Program-made: the position numbers and the translations under genes
Notes under the pieces: model-generated
Database searches by the model: none
Told to the model about the DNA's origin: nothing
The model's input: the letters and a program-made list of their open reading frames with translations, nothing else
Part shown: positions 4,028 to 12,002 of the stretch, piece after piece
How the letters are laid out: each line of letters starts with the position of its first letter
Numbering within the stretch: the stretch's first letter is position 1
Origin: a virus
Lineage: Duplodnaviria > Heunggongvirae > Uroviricota > Caudoviricetes
Strand: one strand, 5' to 3'
IMG/VR virus record: IMGVR_UViG_2619619130_000001
DNA: 23,805 bases

Positions 4028-4137
4028 GTATATTTATCTCATGGCTTGTTCTGATTATTTCGGTGGCCTGCGCTATTGGGATTATGCGAATTATTAATTC
4101 AGTAAAAAAGATTGAACGCTTTTTCACTGAAGAATAA
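4024..4137 (+). CDS. Possible small hydrophobic peptide (37 aa, single TM)
   Basis: ATG at 4024 overlapping the previous stop (ATGA); translation MSIFISWLVLIISVACAIGIMRIINSVKKIERFFTEE, stop at 4135-4137; below the ORF-track size cutoff. Confidence 0.25.
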   Translation: MSIFISWLVLIISVACAIGIMRIINSVKKIERFFTEE

Positions 4138-4223
4138 CCGCGCAAATAAGACTCCAGGTTAAATAAGAAAATGTGAAAACAATCCGCATTCGCGGAGGTA
4201 TTCGCACACGCCAAGGAGGCGTA

Positions 4224-4427
4224 ATGGCAATTAAGCATTTTCCTGTCGTTCGTTTCACCTCCAGAGGACGTGAATACGAAGTTGACGAACGCCTGATTAC
4301 CACAATCGACAAACACCGTTCAGAAAAGGATGCACATCACATCTATCTCACTGACGGTACTTACTTCTGCGCCACCAACGTGGTGCAGGTGAATCTTATC
4401 AGACAGGTACAGGAGTCACGCAGATGA
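4224..4427 (+). CDS. Hypothetical early protein
   Basis: Strong RBS AAGGAGG then ATG at 4224 (internal start of the 4173..4427 frame). Confidence 0.45.
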   Translation: MAIKHFPVVRFTSRGREYEVDERLITTIDKHRSEKDAHHIYLTDGTYFCATNVVQVNLIRQVQESRR

Positions 4428-4669
4428 CCATTCTGGACTACATCGCTGCCAATCCGGGTTGTAGCGGTGGAGAAATCGCCGCAGCACTGAATACACCAAC
4501 CACAACCATTAATGCGGAGCTACGCCGTCTCTGGCGCAGCGGTTCAGTCATAAGAAAAGAGCGCAAAACAGGCGGTCGCTTTTCTTATCAGGTAAACCCG
4601 ATGCCGTTTGGGTGTAGCAACCCTCTAACCCAGATGTTCAACCAGCTACTGAGAGAAATCAGAGCATGA
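4424..4669 (+). CDS. Small winged-helix DNA-binding protein
   Basis: 81 aa; MTILDYIAANPGCSGGEIAAALNTPTTTINAELRRLWRSGSV resembles wHTH regulators; AGGAG RBS; start overlaps previous stop. Confidence 0.55.
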   Translation: MTILDYIAANPGCSGGEIAAALNTPTTTINAELRRLWRSGSVIRKERKTGGRFSYQVNPMPFGCSNPLTQMFNQLLREIRA

Positions 4670-4810
4670 GCACCTCCAACTGCCGGAAACCACGTCGGGC
4701 TTCAGCAGCTCATCCGGCAGCAAAACAAACTCCGTTAATTCCTGTTCCGGGCCTTTCCTGCACCTTGCGGCAAGAGGCCTTCGCACATCTGCAACAAGAG
4801 GATTGCCGCA

Positions 4811-5176
4811 ATGATTCTCGCCGAAGACTTTTTTGATTACCTGCTGAAAACCGAGCGCGATTTTGGTATTCGCGTTCTCGACCGCTATGCAATGTATCTG
4901 AAATCACTGCCGGAACAGCAGCTCCCGGACGGCCAGATTGTTATTGACGGGCGCTACATGGTTGGTAGCTGCCAGGAGGATTACACACTTTCCCGCATCG
5001 AAAGCGGCACGCCTTCCGTACTGGGTATTTACCTGCGAACTTCATCTCTGATTGCTGATGTAATTGCTGACAGCATTCGCATAACACACCGTTATGCCAG
5101 CACAGAGAGCACCATGCAGGAAATCCAGCGGCTGGCTACCGTCTGCCACAATGCACTGAGCGGAAAGGCGGAGTAG
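4811..5176 (+). CDS. Hypothetical protein upstream of replication gene
   Basis: 121-aa ORF with plausible RBS; ends 6 nt before gene A. An alternative 56-aa ORF (4666-4836) overlaps its start. Confidence 0.45.
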   Translation: MILAEDFFDYLLKTERDFGIRVLDRYAMYLKSLPEQQLPDGQIVIDGRYMVGSCQEDYTLSRIESGTPSVLGIYLRTSSLIADVIADSIRITHRYASTESTMQEIQRLATVCHNALSGKAE

Positions 5177-5181
5177 TCGGC

Positions 5182-8004
5182 GTGGCAACGGAGTACATCA
5201 GAGACTGGCAACAACCACGCCATGCAGTCGGTGGCGAGGGAACGGGGGAGCCTGTCCGCCCCTCCCTTCTTTCTTCCTGGCTGGATGCCTACCGGGCAGA
5301 GAACGAGCGCCGCCAGGAAATGGCTGATGCGGCGTTCTCCGCTGCACCACTGGGCAATCTGATTAATAAAAGCCTGGACGCACAGGAAAAACAGGACAAA
5401 GCCATCACACTGGCAAGAGAAGCCAGAAAGCAGGCACGCGGTGCGGTGGATGAAGCCATGGCCTCGCTGCGTCTGCTGCCGTCCTATCTGCGTGATCCGC
5501 TTATCCGCCATCTCTCTTTCCTGCACAAAAAACAGGAATCTGGCCACCAGAAAGGCAAAAAGAACCAGCAGGCGGAACGCTATGCGAGCGGAACCCTGCG
5601 CAAAATATTCGAACGTCTGGCCCGCACCGACCGTCGCTGGCTGACTCCGGGTTATCGCTCCCTTGCCGGACGTGAACGTCTGGACGATTTGCTGTACCTG
5701 CCACAGCTCAACAAGCACCAGATACAGACGCTGGCCGTCATGACGGCGGCAATGTTCAGCAGCACCTTCGAAAAACTCTGCGATGGCTGTGGCGCGACCG
5801 ACGGCGAGCTGACCATGGATATAACGCTGAAGGCGTATCAGATGCTGGCCCGCATGGCGTTACATCTGCACACAGTGCCGCCGCATTATGACGCACTGAC
5901 AACAGACAAAGACCGGAAGAACGAACCGGACACGGAACTGCTGCCGGGTGCAATCCTCCGCCTGACCTGTGCGGACTGGTGGAAACGCAAACTGTGGCTT
6001 TTACGTTGCGAATGGAGAGAGGAACAACTCCGCGCTGCCTGTCTAGTTTCCAGAAAAACATCACCCTATCTGAGTCAGGACGCATTAAGTGAATTTCGCG
6101 CACAGCGCGAGAAAACACGCGATTTCCTGAAAAGTTTCATGCTGGAAAATGAAGACGGGTTCACGATTGATCTCGAGACAGTGTATTACGCGGGAGTAAG
6201 TAACCCGGTCCACCGTAAGGCAGAAATGATGGCCACCATGAAGGGACTGGAACTTCTGGCCGAAGCCCGTGGCGACAGAGCGGTGTTTCTGACTGTCACC
6301 TGCCCGTCAAAATACCACGCTACAACAGAGAACGGTCATCCGAATCCCAAATGGAACGGCGCCACCATGCGCGATTCCAGTGATTACCTGGTTAACACTT
6401 TTTTTAAGGCGGTCCGCAAAAAACTGAATCGCGACGGCCTGCGCTGGTATGGCATCCGCACGGTGGAGCCACACCATGACGGCACCGTGCACTGGCACAT
6501 GATGGTCTTTGCACATCCTGAAGAAATCGACAGCATCGTGGACATCACCCGTGATATTGCCATTCGCGAAGACCGCCACGAGCTGGGCAATGACATAACT
6601 CCGCGCTTTAAGGCAGAGTACGTCGACGGTTCGAAAGGTACGCCGACCAGCTACATCGCCACCTACATCGGAAAGAACCTGGACAGCCGCGCCGTGGATG
6701 GCATTGACCCGAAAACAGGCAAGCCACGCGTTGATCACGAAACCGGAAAATCAATGGCCGAGAGCGTGGAACGCGCCATCGGCTGGGCGCGCCTTCACCG
6801 CGTCCGCCAGTTCCAGTTCTTTGGTATCCCCTCCCGTCAGGTATGGCGTGAACTCCGCCGCCTTGCCAGTCAGATGGCCCGCAACCCGGAAGGTCCACAA
6901 CGTCTGGAAAATGACGCAATGGATGCGGTACTCGCTGCCGCTGATGCCGGGTGTTTTGCCACCTACATTGAGAAACAGGGTGGCGTACTTGTTCCACGCA
7001 AGGATTACCTGATTCGCACCGCCTACGACCTCGCAGAAGAGCTGAACGATTACGGCGAGCAAAGCGTACAGATTTACGGGATCTGGTCGCCACAAATCGG
7101 GGAATCTTCCCGCGTGTGCACGCACCCGGATAACTGGAAGCTGGTAAGACGTAAACCGGAAGCGGAAGACAGCGCCCGCGAAAATGGTTTTGACCTTCAG
7201 GGCGGCCCTGCCGCCCCTTGGACTCGTGGCAATAACTGTCCCCGTGTACAGGAAACGGACAACAACGGGACAGAACAGCCGGAAGAACGGCCATCACCGT
7301 GGCCGCAGCTTCCTGACGGCGTTGACGTGAATGAATGGATGCGCTCACTGAAACTGCACGAACGCCGGGCGCTGATGCGTTCGCTGCGTGACAAACAGGC
7401 AAAAAACAGCAGTGATGAAATGCAGAACTGGACACAGAGCCGCAAACAGCCACGGCCTTTGCCTGATAACCACGAGTTACTCGCTAAAGAATGGCGGGAG
7501 TCTGCTGAATCTCTCGGCCTGCATATCGGTGAACAGCAGATGCAGCACCTGTTACGGGGCGGCAGTCTGTACGTTGACGGCAGCATCATTGCACCGCAGG
7601 GATTTGAAATTGTACGCAAACCGGATACCCGCCCGGACAGCCGAATCACGCAGCTCTGGCAGCGCCTGAGCCGCAATCACGGCGTAAGCAGCACGGAGAT
7701 CCGCCATAACCCGGTCGCCAGCTATCTGGAACAGCTGGGGGCATCAGACCCCGAAGCCGCCGCACGCCTGGCATCCACACTTCAGCAGGACCAGAACACC
7801 ATGAAAACCCCCGTTACCGTGCTTTCTGACATGCTGCGCGCCATCCGTGACGCAGAGCACGCACAGAGAATCAGTGAAACCACTGAACGCGCCCACCGCA
7901 AAGCAGACCTGCTGCGGGGTAGCCTGACCAGTGGAAACAAAAAACAGACAGAAACGGGATTCACAAATCCCGTAAATGAGCAAAAAACGTGCCGCGATAT
8001 ATGA
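5182..8004 (+). CDS. A: Rolling-circle replication initiator / endonuclease (P2 gpA family)
   Basis: 940 aa; HxH metal motif (VHWHMMVFAH) and paired active-site tyrosines YIATYIGKN; position after early operon as in P2. Apparent GTG start at 5182. Confidence 0.88.
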   Translation: MATEYIRDWQQPRHAVGGEGTGEPVRPSLLSSWLDAYRAENERRQEMADAAFSAAPLGNLINKSLDAQEKQDKAITLAREARKQARGAVDEAMASLRLLPSYLRDPLIRHLSFLHKKQESGHQKGKKNQQAERYASGTLRKIFERLARTDRRWLTPGYRSLAGRERLDDLLYLPQLNKHQIQTLAVMTAAMFSSTFEKLCDGCGATDGELTMDITLKAYQMLARMALHLHTVPPHYDALTTDKDRKNEPDTELLPGAILRLTCADWWKRKLWLLRCEWREEQLRAACLVSRKTSPYLSQDALSEFRAQREKTRDFLKSFMLENEDGFTIDLETVYYAGVSNPVHRKAEMMATMKGLELLAEARGDRAVFLTVTCPSKYHATTENGHPNPKWNGATMRDSSDYLVNTFFKAVRKKLNRDGLRWYGIRTVEPHHDGTVHWHMMVFAHPEEIDSIVDITRDIAIREDRHELGNDITPRFKAEYVDGSKGTPTSYIATYIGKNLDSRAVDGIDPKTGKPRVDHETGKSMAESVERAIGWARLHRVRQFQFFGIPSRQVWRELRRLASQMARNPEGPQRLENDAMDAVLAAADAGCFATYIEKQGGVLVPRKDYLIRTAYDLAEELNDYGEQSVQIYGIWSPQIGESSRVCTHPDNWKLVRRKPEAEDSARENGFDLQGGPAAPWTRGNNCPRVQETDNNGTEQPEERPSPWPQLPDGVDVNEWMRSLKLHERRALMRSLRDKQAKNSSDEMQNWTQSRKQPRPLPDNHELLAKEWRESAESLGLHIGEQQMQHLLRGGSLYVDGSIIAPQGFEIVRKPDTRPDSRITQLWQRLSRNHGVSSTEIRHNPVASYLEQLGASDPEAAARLASTLQQDQNTMKTPVTVLSDMLRAIRDAEHAQRISETTERAHRKADLLRGSLTSGNKKQTETGFTNPVNEQKTCRDI

Positions 8005-8046
8005 AGCGCGCACAAAACAGGCAAAAGCGGGATTTAAAAATCCTGT
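7955..8046. promoter_or_regulatory. Two related palindromic boxes upstream of parM (CGGGATTCACAAATCCCG at 7955-7972; CGGGATTTAAAAATCCTG at 8028-8046); candidate ParR-binding/centromere-like or operator sites
   Basis: Imperfect ~30-bp direct repeat, each copy with an inverted repeat GGGATT-N-AATCC; the first lies in the last codons of A, the second in the A-parM gap. Confidence 0.4.
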
Positions 8047-8080
8047 AACCGATTAATTAATCAACATAAGGAAAAGCGAC

Positions 8081-9040
8081 ATGAAAATTTGTATCGACGA
8101 CGGCTCCACCAATATCAAGCTGGCATGGACTGAGAACGGCGAACGCCGCAACGCTATCAGCCCGAACAGCTTCAAGTCGGAATGGTCTGCGCCGTTCGGT
8201 GGCACGCAGCCCGCGAACTACATGCTTGATGGCGTGCGCTATGGTTTTGATCCGGTCAGCGATCGCTTTGTCCAGACGACCGACACGCAATACCAGTACA
8301 GCGATGTGAATGTCATTGCCATTCATCACGCGCTGGTCAAATCAGGCATCACACCACAGGAGGTGGATGTGGTTGTCACCCTGCCACTGAGCGAGTATTT
8401 CGACACAAACGCACAGCCGGACATGGCCAACATCAACCGCAAAAAAGCGAACGTTATGCGCCCGGTGGAGTACCAGAACGGCAAAGCATTCACTATCCGT
8501 AACGTACGGGTTATGCCTGAATCTATTCCGGCTGGCTTTAAAGCACTGGCTGACATGAGTCCGTTTGAATCCCTGCTGATTGTGGATTTAGGCGGAACCA
8601 CGCTGGATGTAGCAAAGGTTCAGGGACAACTGGCAGGTATCAGCCAGGTGTTTTGCGATCCACACGTAGGCGTTTCCCTGATGGCCGATGCAGTACTGTC
8701 GGTGATGGCCACTAACGGTATGCGTACCAGTCACCACATCGCCAATACCATTATCGAACATCGCCATGATGAAGCCTGGCTGCGCCAGCACATCCATAAT
8801 GACGCGCATTACGCCAGCCTGATGGCGGTTATTCGTGAAAAGGAAGAAACACTGAAACAACGCGTGATCCGCGCGCTGGCGGGTTTTTCGGGTTACGGGC
8901 GGGTGATGGTTGTCGGTGGCGGGGCGGAGATTGTGGCACCCGCTATCCGCGAAGCCTGCGGAGTTAATGCGACTTTCATCGCGGACGGGGGGCCACAGTT
9001 TGCTCTGGTTAATGGGCTGTACGCAATGGACAAGGAGTAA
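8081..9040 (+). CDS. parM: ParM/StbA-family actin-like segregation ATPase
   Basis: 319 aa; N-terminal CIDDGSTNIKLAW, SDVNVIAIHHAL, VMPESIPAG, LIVDLGGTTLDV and VMVVGGGAE motifs align along the length with plasmid R1 ParM as I remember it. Confidence 0.85.
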   Translation: MKICIDDGSTNIKLAWTENGERRNAISPNSFKSEWSAPFGGTQPANYMLDGVRYGFDPVSDRFVQTTDTQYQYSDVNVIAIHHALVKSGITPQEVDVVVTLPLSEYFDTNAQPDMANINRKKANVMRPVEYQNGKAFTIRNVRVMPESIPAGFKALADMSPFESLLIVDLGGTTLDVAKVQGQLAGISQVFCDPHVGVSLMADAVLSVMATNGMRTSHHIANTIIEHRHDEAWLRQHIHNDAHYASLMAVIREKEETLKQRVIRALAGFSGYGRVMVVGGGAEIVAPAIREACGVNATFIADGGPQFALVNGLYAMDKE

Positions 9041-9044
9041 ACCA

Positions 9045-9356
9045 ATGACGACTCCAACCAGACGGATAAGTTTCTATCTGAAGCCCGCCGCCGTCAAGAA
9101 CGAAGGAGAAGCATGCGCCTGGCTGGACAGCCTTACACCAGAAGCCCGCAAAAGCGGCCAACGCGTGGCTTTTCTGGCCGGGCTGGCACTTCTGAAAATG
9201 AATCCGGCAGAGGCTTACCGACTAGCTGCATGGGCTGATGATGAAGCGTTATCAGTGACACAAACCAGGACAGAACGCCCCGCATCACAGCCAGTATCAA
9301 CCGCACAGATAACCAGTCAGATGGCCGGAAATATCCGGGCGTTATTTCCTGAATAA
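9045..9356 (+). CDS. parR: ParR/StbB-like centromere-binding adaptor
   Basis: 104 aa from ATG 9045 (RBS AAGGAG); RRISFYLKP, WLDSLTPEARKSGQRVAFLAGLAL and C-terminal RALFPE resemble R1 ParR; directly follows parM. Confidence 0.72.
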   Translation: MTTPTRRISFYLKPAAVKNEGEACAWLDSLTPEARKSGQRVAFLAGLALLKMNPAEAYRLAAWADDEALSVTQTRTERPASQPVSTAQITSQMAGNIRALFPE

Positions 9357-9364
9357 CACAACAT

Positions 9365-9382
9365 CAGGGCGAGTTCGCCCTG
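9365..9382 (+). terminator. GC-rich stem-loop after parR (possible attenuator/terminator)
   Basis: CAGGGCG-AGTT-CGCCCTG hairpin seen directly; no clear U-tract, so weak as an intrinsic terminator. Confidence 0.3.
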
Positions 9383-9419
9383 CTCTCCACCTCAGAACAT
9401 AAACAAGGAGAACGACTTA

Positions 9420-9803
9420 ATGAGCGAAATCAACTATCAGGCATTACGTGAACGTTATTCACCTGTGCCAGTACCGAAATGCCCTATTTGCGGCGAGGAA
9501 ATGTCAATTCAGCGAATATCTGGAGCACAGGTTGTTTATGCCTGCTCCGGTTATGGTGATGATGGAGATTTCAAAATTGGTCGAACTCTTGCCGACGAAC
9601 ATTATGAAAAATCACGCGTAACAGTGTTGGATGTCGGGGATCCTGAAGTATTGGCGCTACTTGATTGGCTGGAAACCAAAGACAACCGAATCGCTGAACT
9701 GGAAAAAATCGCCACTGACTATGCACTTAAATTCCAGAAAGCACAGGACGCATTAAAGTACGCCGCTTTGCTGCATAGCAGGACAGCGCAGCTACAAGAC
9801 TAA
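9420..9803 (+). CDS. Hypothetical protein with CxxC zinc-ribbon-like motif and C-terminal coiled coil
   Basis: 127 aa; KCPICGEE...YACSG then heptad-like LDWLETKDNRIAELEKIATDYALKFQKAQDALKYAA; AAGGAG RBS; within the variable locus. Confidence 0.6.
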   Translation: MSEINYQALRERYSPVPVPKCPICGEEMSIQRISGAQVVYACSGYGDDGDFKIGRTLADEHYEKSRVTVLDVGDPEVLALLDWLETKDNRIAELEKIATDYALKFQKAQDALKYAALLHSRTAQLQD

Positions 9804-9893
9804 CTTAAAGCGGAAGATTAATACATGGTGAGTCAGGGTAATTTGTTTTTATCCCGACAAATAAACAAAAAAGTGGACTATCTCTGTAGTATC

Positions 9894-10424
9894 TTATTCA
9901 GCATCGTCTCGTGCAGTCTGTGCATACGTCACAACAACGCCCAATGCATTAGTTTTCTTTTCAACATAGATAATATTGTCATATTCATAGTTACCATACG
10001 GATAGCAAATAAGAATATTTTTATGCAGATCGGGATCATCAACAAACGCTCCGGAACAGCTTCTTGAACTACCGGATGTATACTCATACGGTGCAACATA
10101 TGATGATGTTACTCCTGGTAAAAAATAAGTCACCATCATAAGAGGGATAATCAGGAATATCCCTGTAAGAATGCAAGAGCCAGCATAAACCTTCAGGTAT
10201 TCCGACAGTCCTTTCCAGCCACTTTGCTTCACTACCCCCCTCTTCACCAGAAACAAGGAGAAGAAAAAGGACATACCCATACTACACAAGATGTAATAAT
10301 TGGATATACGCGAATTAAGATATGTAATCCTGTAGATATCTGCCCTCCACCAGTAAAAGAGGAAAATAATCCCTAGCACTGAAACAGTCATGCAAATCAA
10401 ATAAGGATATGAATCTTTCTTCAT
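9894..10424 (-). CDS. Integral membrane protein (about 3 TM helices + ~70-aa soluble C-terminal domain), function unknown; candidate exclusion/abortive-infection cargo
   Basis: 176 aa; hydrophobic segments LICMTVSVLGIIFLFYWW, YYILCSMGMSFFFSLFLV, AGSCILTGIFLIIPLMMVTYFL; strongly AT-rich unlike flanking phage DNA; convergent with the preceding gene. Confidence 0.65.
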   Translation of the reverse strand: MKKDSYPYLICMTVSVLGIIFLFYWWRADIYRITYLNSRISNYYILCSMGMSFFFSLFLVKRGVVKQSGWKGLSEYLKVYAGSCILTGIFLIIPLMMVTYFLPGVTSSYVAPYEYTSGSSRSCSGAFVDDPDLHKNILICYPYGNYEYDNIIYVEKKTNALGVVVTYAQTARDDAE

Positions 10425-10772
10425 GTCTTGCGCTCATTAAAATTTCCCTGCTACGAACAAATTTACCATCCGTTTTTTGCGCAGAAAACAGCACGATGCA
10501 CACTGCACGATAGTGCACAAATTTGCACAATTTTTTTGAACGACTTTTTACCCTTCCGGCCCGCATGGCGGCTGGATCCGTCAAGGATCCGTGCGTGCAC
10601 AAAAAAACGCGTTTTTTCTGCGCGCAGGTGACGGGGGAACAGCCCGCGTTTCAGGGGGTAAATAGCATTCCCTGAACGATGTCGCAGAGACACAACAGAA
10701 TGGCTGTATTTCTCACGCTGAGCGTGAAAAATACGTGAGGGATTCTGATTTGATGGGGTGAAAGGTAAGGCC

Positions 10773-10794
10773 GTCAAAATCGCACTGAGGCGGC
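10773..10794. other. Candidate cos (cohesive end) site
   Basis: GAGGCGGCAAAGAAC resembles the P2 cos sequence as I recall it (GGCGAGGCGGGGAAAGCAC) and lies ~165 bp beyond the Q stop, where P2 places cos. From memory, unverified. Confidence 0.3.
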
Positions 10795-10902
10795 AAAGAA
10801 CATGCAGTCAACGCGGTGGGATTGCGTAAGAGTCTGACCGCCGATGATGGCAATAAGCAGAAAAGCGTCGTGAAATTATCTGATTGATACAGGAGCTGGA
10901 GA

Positions 10903-10931
10903 GCCGGGGCATAAATTTTTTATGCCCCGGC
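10903..10931 (-). terminator. Strong hairpin just downstream of Q (likely terminator of the leftward P-Q transcript)
   Basis: GCCGGGGCATAAA-TTT-TTTATGCCCCGGC, 13-bp perfect stem, located 25 bp past the Q stop. Confidence 0.45.
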
Positions 10932-10955
10932 GAAGCAGCAGACAAGCGAAGCGCG

Positions 10956-12002
10956 TCAGGATGTGGGCTGGGTATCTAACAGTGCGTAAGGGTTAAAGCG
11001 GATCACCTCTTCGCCAAGCCAGTCATTGATGTGCTTCATGGCCTCCATGACGGGCATCAGCTCGTTAATTGCGTAAACCCGCGCGGCCTTCTCCACATCA
11101 CCAAACGCACTTTTTTCACCCGGCATCGCCCCCATCAGTTGCGGCGGAACGCGGTGCGCAGCCAGCACATCATCACGGGATGCCGCCTTAACATTCATGA
11201 ACTCATCCTTTGCGGTGATCTGCTGGAACGGCAAAATTTGCACCCCCTCTTTGCCCCCGTTGGGCGCATGAATGAGCACGTTTTTAAACGCACCGCCACC
11301 ACGTGCACCCTGTAGCGTTTCTTTCAGGGAGTCCATGCTTTCGCGGTTTACCTGCGCTGCACCGATGTAGATGATGCACCCGGCGTGGGATCCGTTGTCG
11401 TAATACAGTTTTCTGAACATGTCCGCCGAATGAGACAGGCTGGCCGAGAGTAATGCGCCGAGATATTCCGGCATGCCGTAGATTTCCTGGTTAATGTCAG
11501 GATTCATCAGGTGGCACACTTTGCCAGGGCGAAACTGGAACGCATCCTTGCCATCCTGCACATACCACCATGATTCAAGATCGCTACCGCGTCGCATGTA
11601 TTTCGCCAGGGCGTGCCGTAATTTAAGCGGTTCGCCGAGCATATTGCTTCGAAGCTCAAGGAATGCGTTACCGAACACAAACCAGTCCAGCGCCAGCGCC
11701 GAGAAATCCTGCCGGGAAAGCAGCGGGTGCGGGATGTAGCAACCGAGTAATACATTGCGCTTAAAGTAAAGCGCAGACTGATGCCAGGACGTTTGCCGGG
11801 CAGCTCTTGCCAGACCGTACCAGTCCACCGGGGTTTCATACCACCGCCCGTTATCAGCACAGTACATATTGTCCAGCAGGTCATGCCCGGTCAGGCGATA
11901 AGGACCATCAAATGTGAATGCACTGAGCGACGATTCTTTCCTGAGCGCATCAGCGAGATCAATGCGTGAACTCATGCGCACTTTTTTATTTTTTCTGCTC
12001 AT
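10956..12002 (-). CDS. Q: Portal protein (P2 gpQ family)
   Basis: 348 aa (P2 Q about 344 aa); second gene of leftward P-Q pair; overlaps P stop by 1 nt. Confidence 0.85.
   Translation of the reverse strand: MSRKNKKVRMSSRIDLADALRKESSLSAFTFDGPYRLTGHDLLDNMYCADNGRWYETPVDWYGLARAARQTSWHQSALYFKRNVLLGCYIPHPLLSRQDFSALALDWFVFGNAFLELRSNMLGEPLKLRHALAKYMRRGSDLESWWYVQDGKDAFQFRPGKVCHLMNPDINQEIYGMPEYLGALLSASLSHSADMFRKLYYDNGSHAGCIIYIGAAQVNRESMDSLKETLQGARGGGAFKNVLIHAPNGGKEGVQILPFQQITAKDEFMNVKAASRDDVLAAHRVPPQLMGAMPGEKSAFGDVEKAARVYAINELMPVMEAMKHINDWLGEEVIRFNPYALLDTQPTS

Follow-up and report, generated by a model that had tools for sequence, protein, structure and literature searches.

A truncated Ead/Ea22-like gene beside parMR in the cargo hotspot of a P88-like prophage, probably a decaying remnant of a cassette swap

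What is the short gene that follows parR in the variable locus of this P2-related prophage, and is its product likely to act on its own, with a neighbour, or not at all? The window, meaning the whole stretch of 23,805 nucleotides that was analysed, is 100% identical to part of the chromosome of E. coli strain H3 (NZ_CP010167.1), and the element in it is a P88-like (Xuanwuvirus, Peduoviridae; P2-related) E. coli prophage integrated beside yecA. Its gene order runs from the replication endonuclease A through parM, parR, the ORF in question, a convergent membrane-protein gene and a conserved non-coding stretch to portal Q and the terminase. A first-pass annotation made from the letters alone had assigned the ORF to a variable locus, and this holds: it sits in the cargo interval between replication gene A and portal gene Q. 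In P2-like phages the gpA-gpQ interval is the principal hotspot for cargo and defence genes, and it often contains pseudogene remnants left by cargo swaps (PMC9122126, PMC13586616). The following features frame the locus.

8081-9040, plus strand: parM, upstream of the ORF and on the same strand
9045-9356, plus strand: parR, upstream of the ORF and on the same strand; the ORF starts 63 bp downstream
9365-9382, plus strand: GC-rich hairpin CAGGGCGAGTTCGCCCTG of 18 nt between the parR stop codon and the cargo; end point of one class of cargo junction
9405-9410, plus strand: Shine-Dalgarno sequence AAGGAG, 9 nt 5' of the ATG of the ORF
9420-9803, plus strand: 127-aa ORF, almost certainly a 3'-truncated Ead/Ea22-like gene, beginning at the first ATG after a stop
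10503-10955, no strand: conserved non-coding stretch upstream of portal gene Q, common to P88, P88_4B11 and the O26 prophage; it anchors the variable locus on the right

The product of the ORF is readily placed in a known family. It matches the Pfam profile PF13935 (Ead/Ea22-like) with 102.9 bits against a gathering cut-off of 27 (E=2.7e-29), residues 2-117 being aligned to profile positions 1-111 of 139, and it also matches phrog_368 (E=4e-26). The identical protein is named 'ead/Ea22-like family protein' by NCBI, where the exact 127-aa sequence is found on 175 contigs. A database search returned 289 relatives, all of which contain PF13935 and nearly all of which bear the same NCBI name. The earlier description of an unrecognisable protein of unknown function had overlooked this placement, along with the fact that the gene is a truncated allele and a RefSeq pseudogene. 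A search of NCBIfam with the ORF protein returned nothing informative, and a sequence search of solved structures gave no match below E=0.88.

Besides passing the Pfam threshold, the protein carries the N-terminal signature MSEINxQALRE, the columns of which are invariant in an alignment with lambda and 933W, and it has the central long helix of the family, although this is cut short of the end of the Pfam domain. What the protein does not have is the variable C-terminal domain that follows the coiled coil and often ends in +GE (many Ead/Ea22-like relatives end in IRIKGE); it stops at residue 127, with LQD. On this evidence the ORF is almost certainly a truncated Ead/Ea22-like gene. The coding sequence is divided as follows.

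9420-9452, plus strand: residues 1-11, MSEINYQALRE, the N-terminal signature common to lambda Ea22 (10 of 11 residues identical) and 933W Ea22
9453-9641, plus strand: residues 12-74, conserved N-terminal module with a putative C3H metal site
9642-9797, plus strand: residues 75-126, single long predicted helix that corresponds to the first part of the family coiled coil

AlphaFold2, supplied with a 68-sequence alignment, predicts a helix at residues 6-13, a beta-hairpin formed by strands 29-34 and 37-41, a helix at 57-65, a strand at 67-70 and a single unbroken helix at 75-126. The mean pLDDT of the model of the 127-aa protein is 76.6 overall; block means in the long helix range from 74 to 91 and lie at 85-91 for residues 81-120. 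The heptad-like helix proposed at first pass is therefore upheld as a long helix, and its heptad pattern is only weakly backed by the sequence itself: a single-register test of a/d hydrophobicity over residues 75-127 gave values no better than those of shuffles (P ~0.15-0.23). As a result, the coiled-coil label rests mainly on family membership (PMC7093339, PMC10834534). The N-terminal part and the coiled coil may together form a shared oligomerising scaffold on which a variable C-terminal effector is displayed.

The truncation can be followed to the base. In strain H3, RefSeq/PGAP annotates window positions 9420-9791 as a pseudogene ('incomplete; missing C-terminus') because the C-terminal domain is absent, and the 'missing C-terminus' flag is also attached to the gene in one O121 strain and one ETEC strain. 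A full-length allele of 196 aa, 98% identical over residues 1-124, occupies the equivalent position in phage P88_4B11 (gp56, YP_009877445.1) and in an O26:H11 prophage. Like the window gene, this P88-like form (in E. coli, WP_001289969.1) lies directly after parR behind the same ribosome-binding site and hairpin, and the two are 98-99% identical over residues 1-124 at the level of both DNA and protein. Unlike the window gene, it encodes 72 extra residues (QTNNFAVSLPDISEYF...) and is not followed by a membrane-protein cassette. DNA homology to P88_4B11 and the O26:H11 prophage is unbroken to 9790 and picks up again at 10503, and the stretch between these points therefore replaces 258 bp of the other arrangement.

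9790-9791, no strand: recombination breakpoint, where homology to the 196-aa allele (P88_4B11, O26:H11 prophage) stops at 9790
9791-10502, no strand: AT-rich cassette of 712 bp (GC 0.36-0.41) that stands in for 258 bp of ancestral sequence, among them the codons for the last 72 residues of the Ea22-like protein
9894-10424, minus strand: 176-aa membrane-protein gene, convergent with the ORF and the sole gene of the cassette; its C-terminal half matches phrog_1416

GC content, 0.53-0.57 in parMR, drops to ~0.45 across the ORF and lies at 0.36-0.41 within the cassette. The incoming cassette DNA supplies codons 125-127 (LQD) as well as the stop, which is 13 nt inside it. The lost C-terminal domain was sought across the whole window and is absent from it, and the 72 lost residues have no match in PHROGs. 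The ends of the cassette are not flanked by repeats of the kind that signal a transposon or site-specific insertion, just by short chance-like matches. Homology, breakpoints and C-terminal loss are established by the comparison, which makes the locus a clean, base-resolved case of cargo swapping in the P2-like hotspot: the resident gene is cut by the cassette 13 nt upstream of the new stop.

The course of events can be proposed as follows. The ancestral order would have been A - parM - parR - ea22-like (196 aa) - cos region - Q. Recombination would then have put the 712-bp cassette, with its opposite-strand membrane-protein gene, in place of the ancestral last 258 bp. This swap would have taken away the C-terminal 72 residues of the ea22-like gene, leaving a reading frame that closes at a fortuitous stop, 13 nt into the cassette. 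The product, if made, would consist of just the N-terminal module, with its probable Cys3-His site, and ~50 residues of oligomerising helix, and the window copy, its effector end gone, would drift towards loss.

Because its tail has been replaced by the cassette, the gene appears to be an ordinary one that is probably decaying. The ORF is accordingly read here as a decaying remnant of an Ead/Ea22-like accessory gene in the gpA-gpQ hotspot, cut by the cassette swap and most likely inactive or residually active, a reading to which we assign a probability of roughly 0.7. Loss of function of the 127-aa copy, taken by itself, is likewise probable.

Whether a truncated copy could still work depends in part on what is known of the family. 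In lambda and phi24B, ea22 is an early gene that biases the phage towards lysogeny, and its deletion shifts the phage towards lytic growth; tetrameric assembly and a pro-lysogenic effect are described for the lambda, P27 and phi24B proteins, and the C-terminal domain of the lambda protein is inactive alone (PMC7093339, PMC10834534). The inability of that domain to give the phenotype means that the N-terminal and coiled-coil parts matter (PMC10834534), which lends some weight to a truncated protein that is still active, either as a self-sufficient lysis-lysogeny regulator made of module and helix or as a protein that joins and disturbs the Ea22 paralog oligomers of co-resident lambdoid prophages. 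Also in its favour, the N-terminal and coiled-coil segments are highly identical among paralogs of different prophages, and the ORF is open, has a good ribosome-binding site, is widespread (175 and 128 contigs for the two 127-aa variants) and keeps all near-invariant residues. The ea22 gene of 933W, described as cut by an insertion, is still treated as a gene (PMC8614690), a precedent that tells against a remnant as well. These points are opposed by a helix that ends before the end of the Pfam domain and by the tolerance, in 22 genomes, of a frameshift right after the N-terminal module. Expression signals beyond read-through from the early operon were not found either, a scan of 7900-11000 having detected no sigma-70-like promoter; an Rfam scan of the same interval gave no match. 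On balance, continued activity of the truncated protein is unlikely, and the decaying remnant remains the preferred reading.

The distribution of alleles bears on the same question. At a coverage of 80% or more of its length, the ORF is present in 210 of 5,426 complete E. coli genomes. By estimate, ~150 of the 210 carry the full-length type, in which the match ends at ORF position 371, and ~80 complete genomes carry the truncated type, a number that fits the 77 genomes with a cassette match of at least 99% identity. Most carriers, like the window, have an open frame, and the frame is also kept, together with every conserved residue, in a 127-aa recombinant with a different N-terminal allele. 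Relative to the window, the truncated alleles inspected differ by non-synonymous changes, namely F105L in the O121 allele and, in the O103 allele, R66H together with two changes in the tail. Two full-length alleles differ from the window by 3 synonymous and 0 non-synonymous codon changes and by 3 and 1, respectively, counts that are too few for a real dN/dS estimate.

In 22 complete genomes, mainly of O103:H2, O45:H2 and related STEC, the truncated allele lacks one G in a GGGG run at codon 73 (window-equivalent 9636); this count combines 21 genomes at 100% identity with one that has a 383-nt, 99%-identical copy, counted by match alone. The frameshifted allele (in O103:H2 strain 129, 1201-1583 of the excerpt) also has R66H, at a conserved position. 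The frameshift takes away the entire helix, and the gene carries the RefSeq flag "frameshifted", with the adjacent membrane gene annotated as intact. The carriers belong nearly all to one clonal group, so the frameshift represents one or two mutational events rather than many.

The neighbours of the ORF were considered next to these data, since the first-pass annotation had raised a partnership with either of them. Were the ORF and the convergent membrane protein a two-gene module, for example an exclusion or toxin-antitoxin-like pair, their adjacency, their convergent arrangement and the ~77 genomes that have both would be accounted for. Each gene is nevertheless found without the other. The membrane protein does not accompany the full-length 196-aa allele, and in 83 genomes a membrane gene of 79% identity lies outside P2-like prophages with no Ea22-like gene. 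O103:H2 combines a frameshifted Ea22-like remnant with an intact membrane gene, and the adjacency itself was made by the truncating event. PADLOC-DB defence models, compared with the ORF, parM, parR and the membrane protein, gave no match at E<=1. A two-gene module is therefore very improbable; the membrane gene is independent cargo and no partner of the ORF. The 79%-identical copy outside P2-like prophages adjoins IS4 and torI/dsdC. PGAP flags the membrane gene itself as 'frameshifted' in H3 and in one O121 strain and annotates it as intact in O103:H2; the 176-aa protein aligns without gaps to an intact 176-aa homologue at 80% identity, and the pseudogene call on this gene looks like an annotation artefact.

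The other neighbour, parMR, is on the same strand and ends 63 bp upstream, and the three genes probably share one transcript, all of which would suit an accessory factor for ParMR partition. Of 5426 complete E. coli genomes, 1337 matched the parMR-containing query; most of these have no Ea22-like gene, and such a gene adjoins parR in only 227 of them. In phage P88, parMR is accompanied by a different gene. The family, in turn, is found mostly in lambdoid, P22-like and P1-like elements that lack parMR, and GC content drops from 0.53-0.57 in parMR to 0.45 at the gene. A role in partition is thus scarcely credible, and the proposed partnership falls away. Taken together, a full-length allele without the membrane gene, a membrane gene without an Ea22-like gene and parMR loci mostly without the ORF mark the ORF as an independent cargo gene. 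In keeping with this, a published locus table lists at least 81 Ead_Ea22 entries against at least 489 StbA entries.

The same counts speak to the claim that the ORF is not a recognisable P2 protein. As a finding that would weigh against its own reading, the first-pass annotation had named homology to a housekeeping protein conserved across P2 relatives whatever the cargo, such as orf91. The gene adjoins parR in 227 of the 1337 parMR-bearing genomes, P88 has another gene in its place, and a P2 core gene such as orf91 is ruled out on both co-occurrence and homology; the ORF is not a core or housekeeping protein of P2. Existing records already cover the protein family, the exact sequence, the RefSeq pseudogene status and the parM-parR-Ead_Ea22 gene order within the P2 gpA-gpQ hotspot. 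The sole small new point is the Cys3-His pattern in the N-terminal module, in which the metal site itself is a candidate drawn from residue conservation.

The ORF does have a CxxC...C cluster near its N-terminus, as first noted, consisting of C21-P-I-C24 (9480-9491) and C42 (9543-9545); its ribosome-binding site is good and the cysteines are near-invariant among the family representatives compared. The codon of H61 is at 9600-9602. A search of 1.84 billion cluster representatives returned 458 relatives at E<=0.001, which are ~100 to 360 aa long and similar mainly in residues 1-95. Conservation among 144 representatives of 50%-identity clusters is 99% for each of C21, C24 and C42 and 98% for H61, and the four residues are invariant in the 68-sequence alignment. 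R10, R12, Y13, P19, G25, G44, D48, G54, R55, D59, Y62 and S65 are also at least 94% conserved in the 144 relatives. Conservation of C21, C24, C42 and H61 suggests a candidate Cys3-His metal site. The pattern, C-x2-C-x17-C-x18-H, comprises one CxxC, a lone C42 where the hairpin ends and H61 in the helix that follows. A zinc ribbon, defined by two CxxC/CxxH knuckles flanking a beta-hairpin, calls for a second knuckle that the module lacks. Of the original zinc-ribbon label, the zinc-finger-like character of the N-terminal part can be retained and the two-knuckle pattern cannot.

The closest known relatives compare with the window protein as follows. Lambda Ea22 (NP_040612.1) resembles the window protein in its match to PF13935 (E=1e-28), in the first 11 residues and in the start of the coiled coil (P..VLxLLDE). 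It differs in having no ~63-residue Cys module, in its dimeric C-terminal domain ending in KGE and in its location, in the exo-xis region of a lambdoid phage and not in a P2-like cargo hotspot. The 933W protein (NP_049469.1) belongs to the same family and has a similar mosaic build, but its N-terminal insert of ~63 aa is Cys-poor and lacks CxxC...C...H, and its C-terminal part is kept, ending in RIKRGE. ES18 gp41, ST64B Sb32 and the phage D6 protein share the Cys module and the start of the helix, with 51-57% identity over residues 1-113 to 1-126; unlike the window protein, they are full-length, have C-terminal parts of their own and are encoded in P22-like, lambdoid and P1-like genomes. By tblastn, a module of the window type was found in only 15 of 50,697 phage records. 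The family is thus seen to be mosaic at its N-terminus too: after MSEINxQALRE, lambda (1051-1596 of the excerpt) has no insert, 933W (4106-4876) has a Cys-poor one and the window has the Cys/His module.

The two Ea22 papers that were searched mention neither zinc nor cysteine in Ea22, nor the Cys3-His pattern. The module is missing from lambda and is unlike the 933W insert, and published structural comments on the N-terminal regions of Stx-phage proteins therefore do not cover it. One could go further and regard the ~63-residue module as an undescribed Cys3-His metal-binding, target-recognition end of one branch of Ead/Ea22 proteins, and the 127-aa form, which many E. coli lineages retain, as a working scaffold-only protein. 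This proposal is improbable; were it true, the 127-aa form could, for example, mix into the Ea22 paralog oligomers of co-resident lambdoid prophages, including Stx prophages, and so alter lysis-lysogeny. Independently of that proposal, the conserved pattern could guide biochemistry on the mechanistically obscure Ead/Ea22 family.

The first-pass annotation had also suggested that the ORF could encode an anti-defence factor. The similarity of the protein to Lar restriction-alleviation zinc fingers is weak and below threshold (Pfam E=0.13, BFVD Foldseek E=0.2), and according to a 2026 preprint some phages encode the anti-OLD inhibitor Oad2 (EaE-like) as a fusion with an EaD/Ea22 protein, so the scaffold can carry anti-immunity domains. 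The Lar similarities are not significant, however, and the variable C-terminal domain, where such an activity would be expected to lie, is absent from this protein; in its lost form the domain matches no known family. More generally, Lar, Ogr/Delta, the N-terminus of NrdR and ribosomal L43 give no significant match; in the window protein the second knuckle is a single Cys, with the presumed fourth ligand a His 18 residues further on, in a helix. An anti-defence role is thus highly unlikely.

Several further observations concern the hotspot itself. The stretch 10503-10955 is described as the cos-proximal region (PMC9122126). On the left-hand side, homology with phage P88, which bears another cargo gene, stops at 9408, and cargo junctions in other genomes fall at window positions 9356, 9382 and 9403-9408. 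These positions lie around the hairpin, which may therefore mark a recombination boundary or a transcript-end signal. In P88 the slot after parR is filled by an unrelated gene for the 110-aa gp19 (4921-5250 of the P88 excerpt), with a ClpX-type C4 zinc finger (PF06689, E=8e-18), and two different small zinc-finger proteins therefore alternate at this position. An overlapping ORF of 112 aa, which matches no family, comes next after gp19 in P88. The R1-type actin-like ParM/ParR pair (8081-9356), lying within an integrated P2-like prophage, is not what an integrating phage usually carries. In a porcine ETEC lineage (ETEC4071, equivalent to window ~8800-10075), an integrase fragment stands in place of parM and only the first 283 bp of the membrane cassette are left; the 127-aa ORF is still open in this further rearranged locus. 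A second small pseudogene remnant, an 'ash family protein' fragment with its N-terminus missing, is marked by RefSeq in the early region of the prophage at window ~4695-4814.
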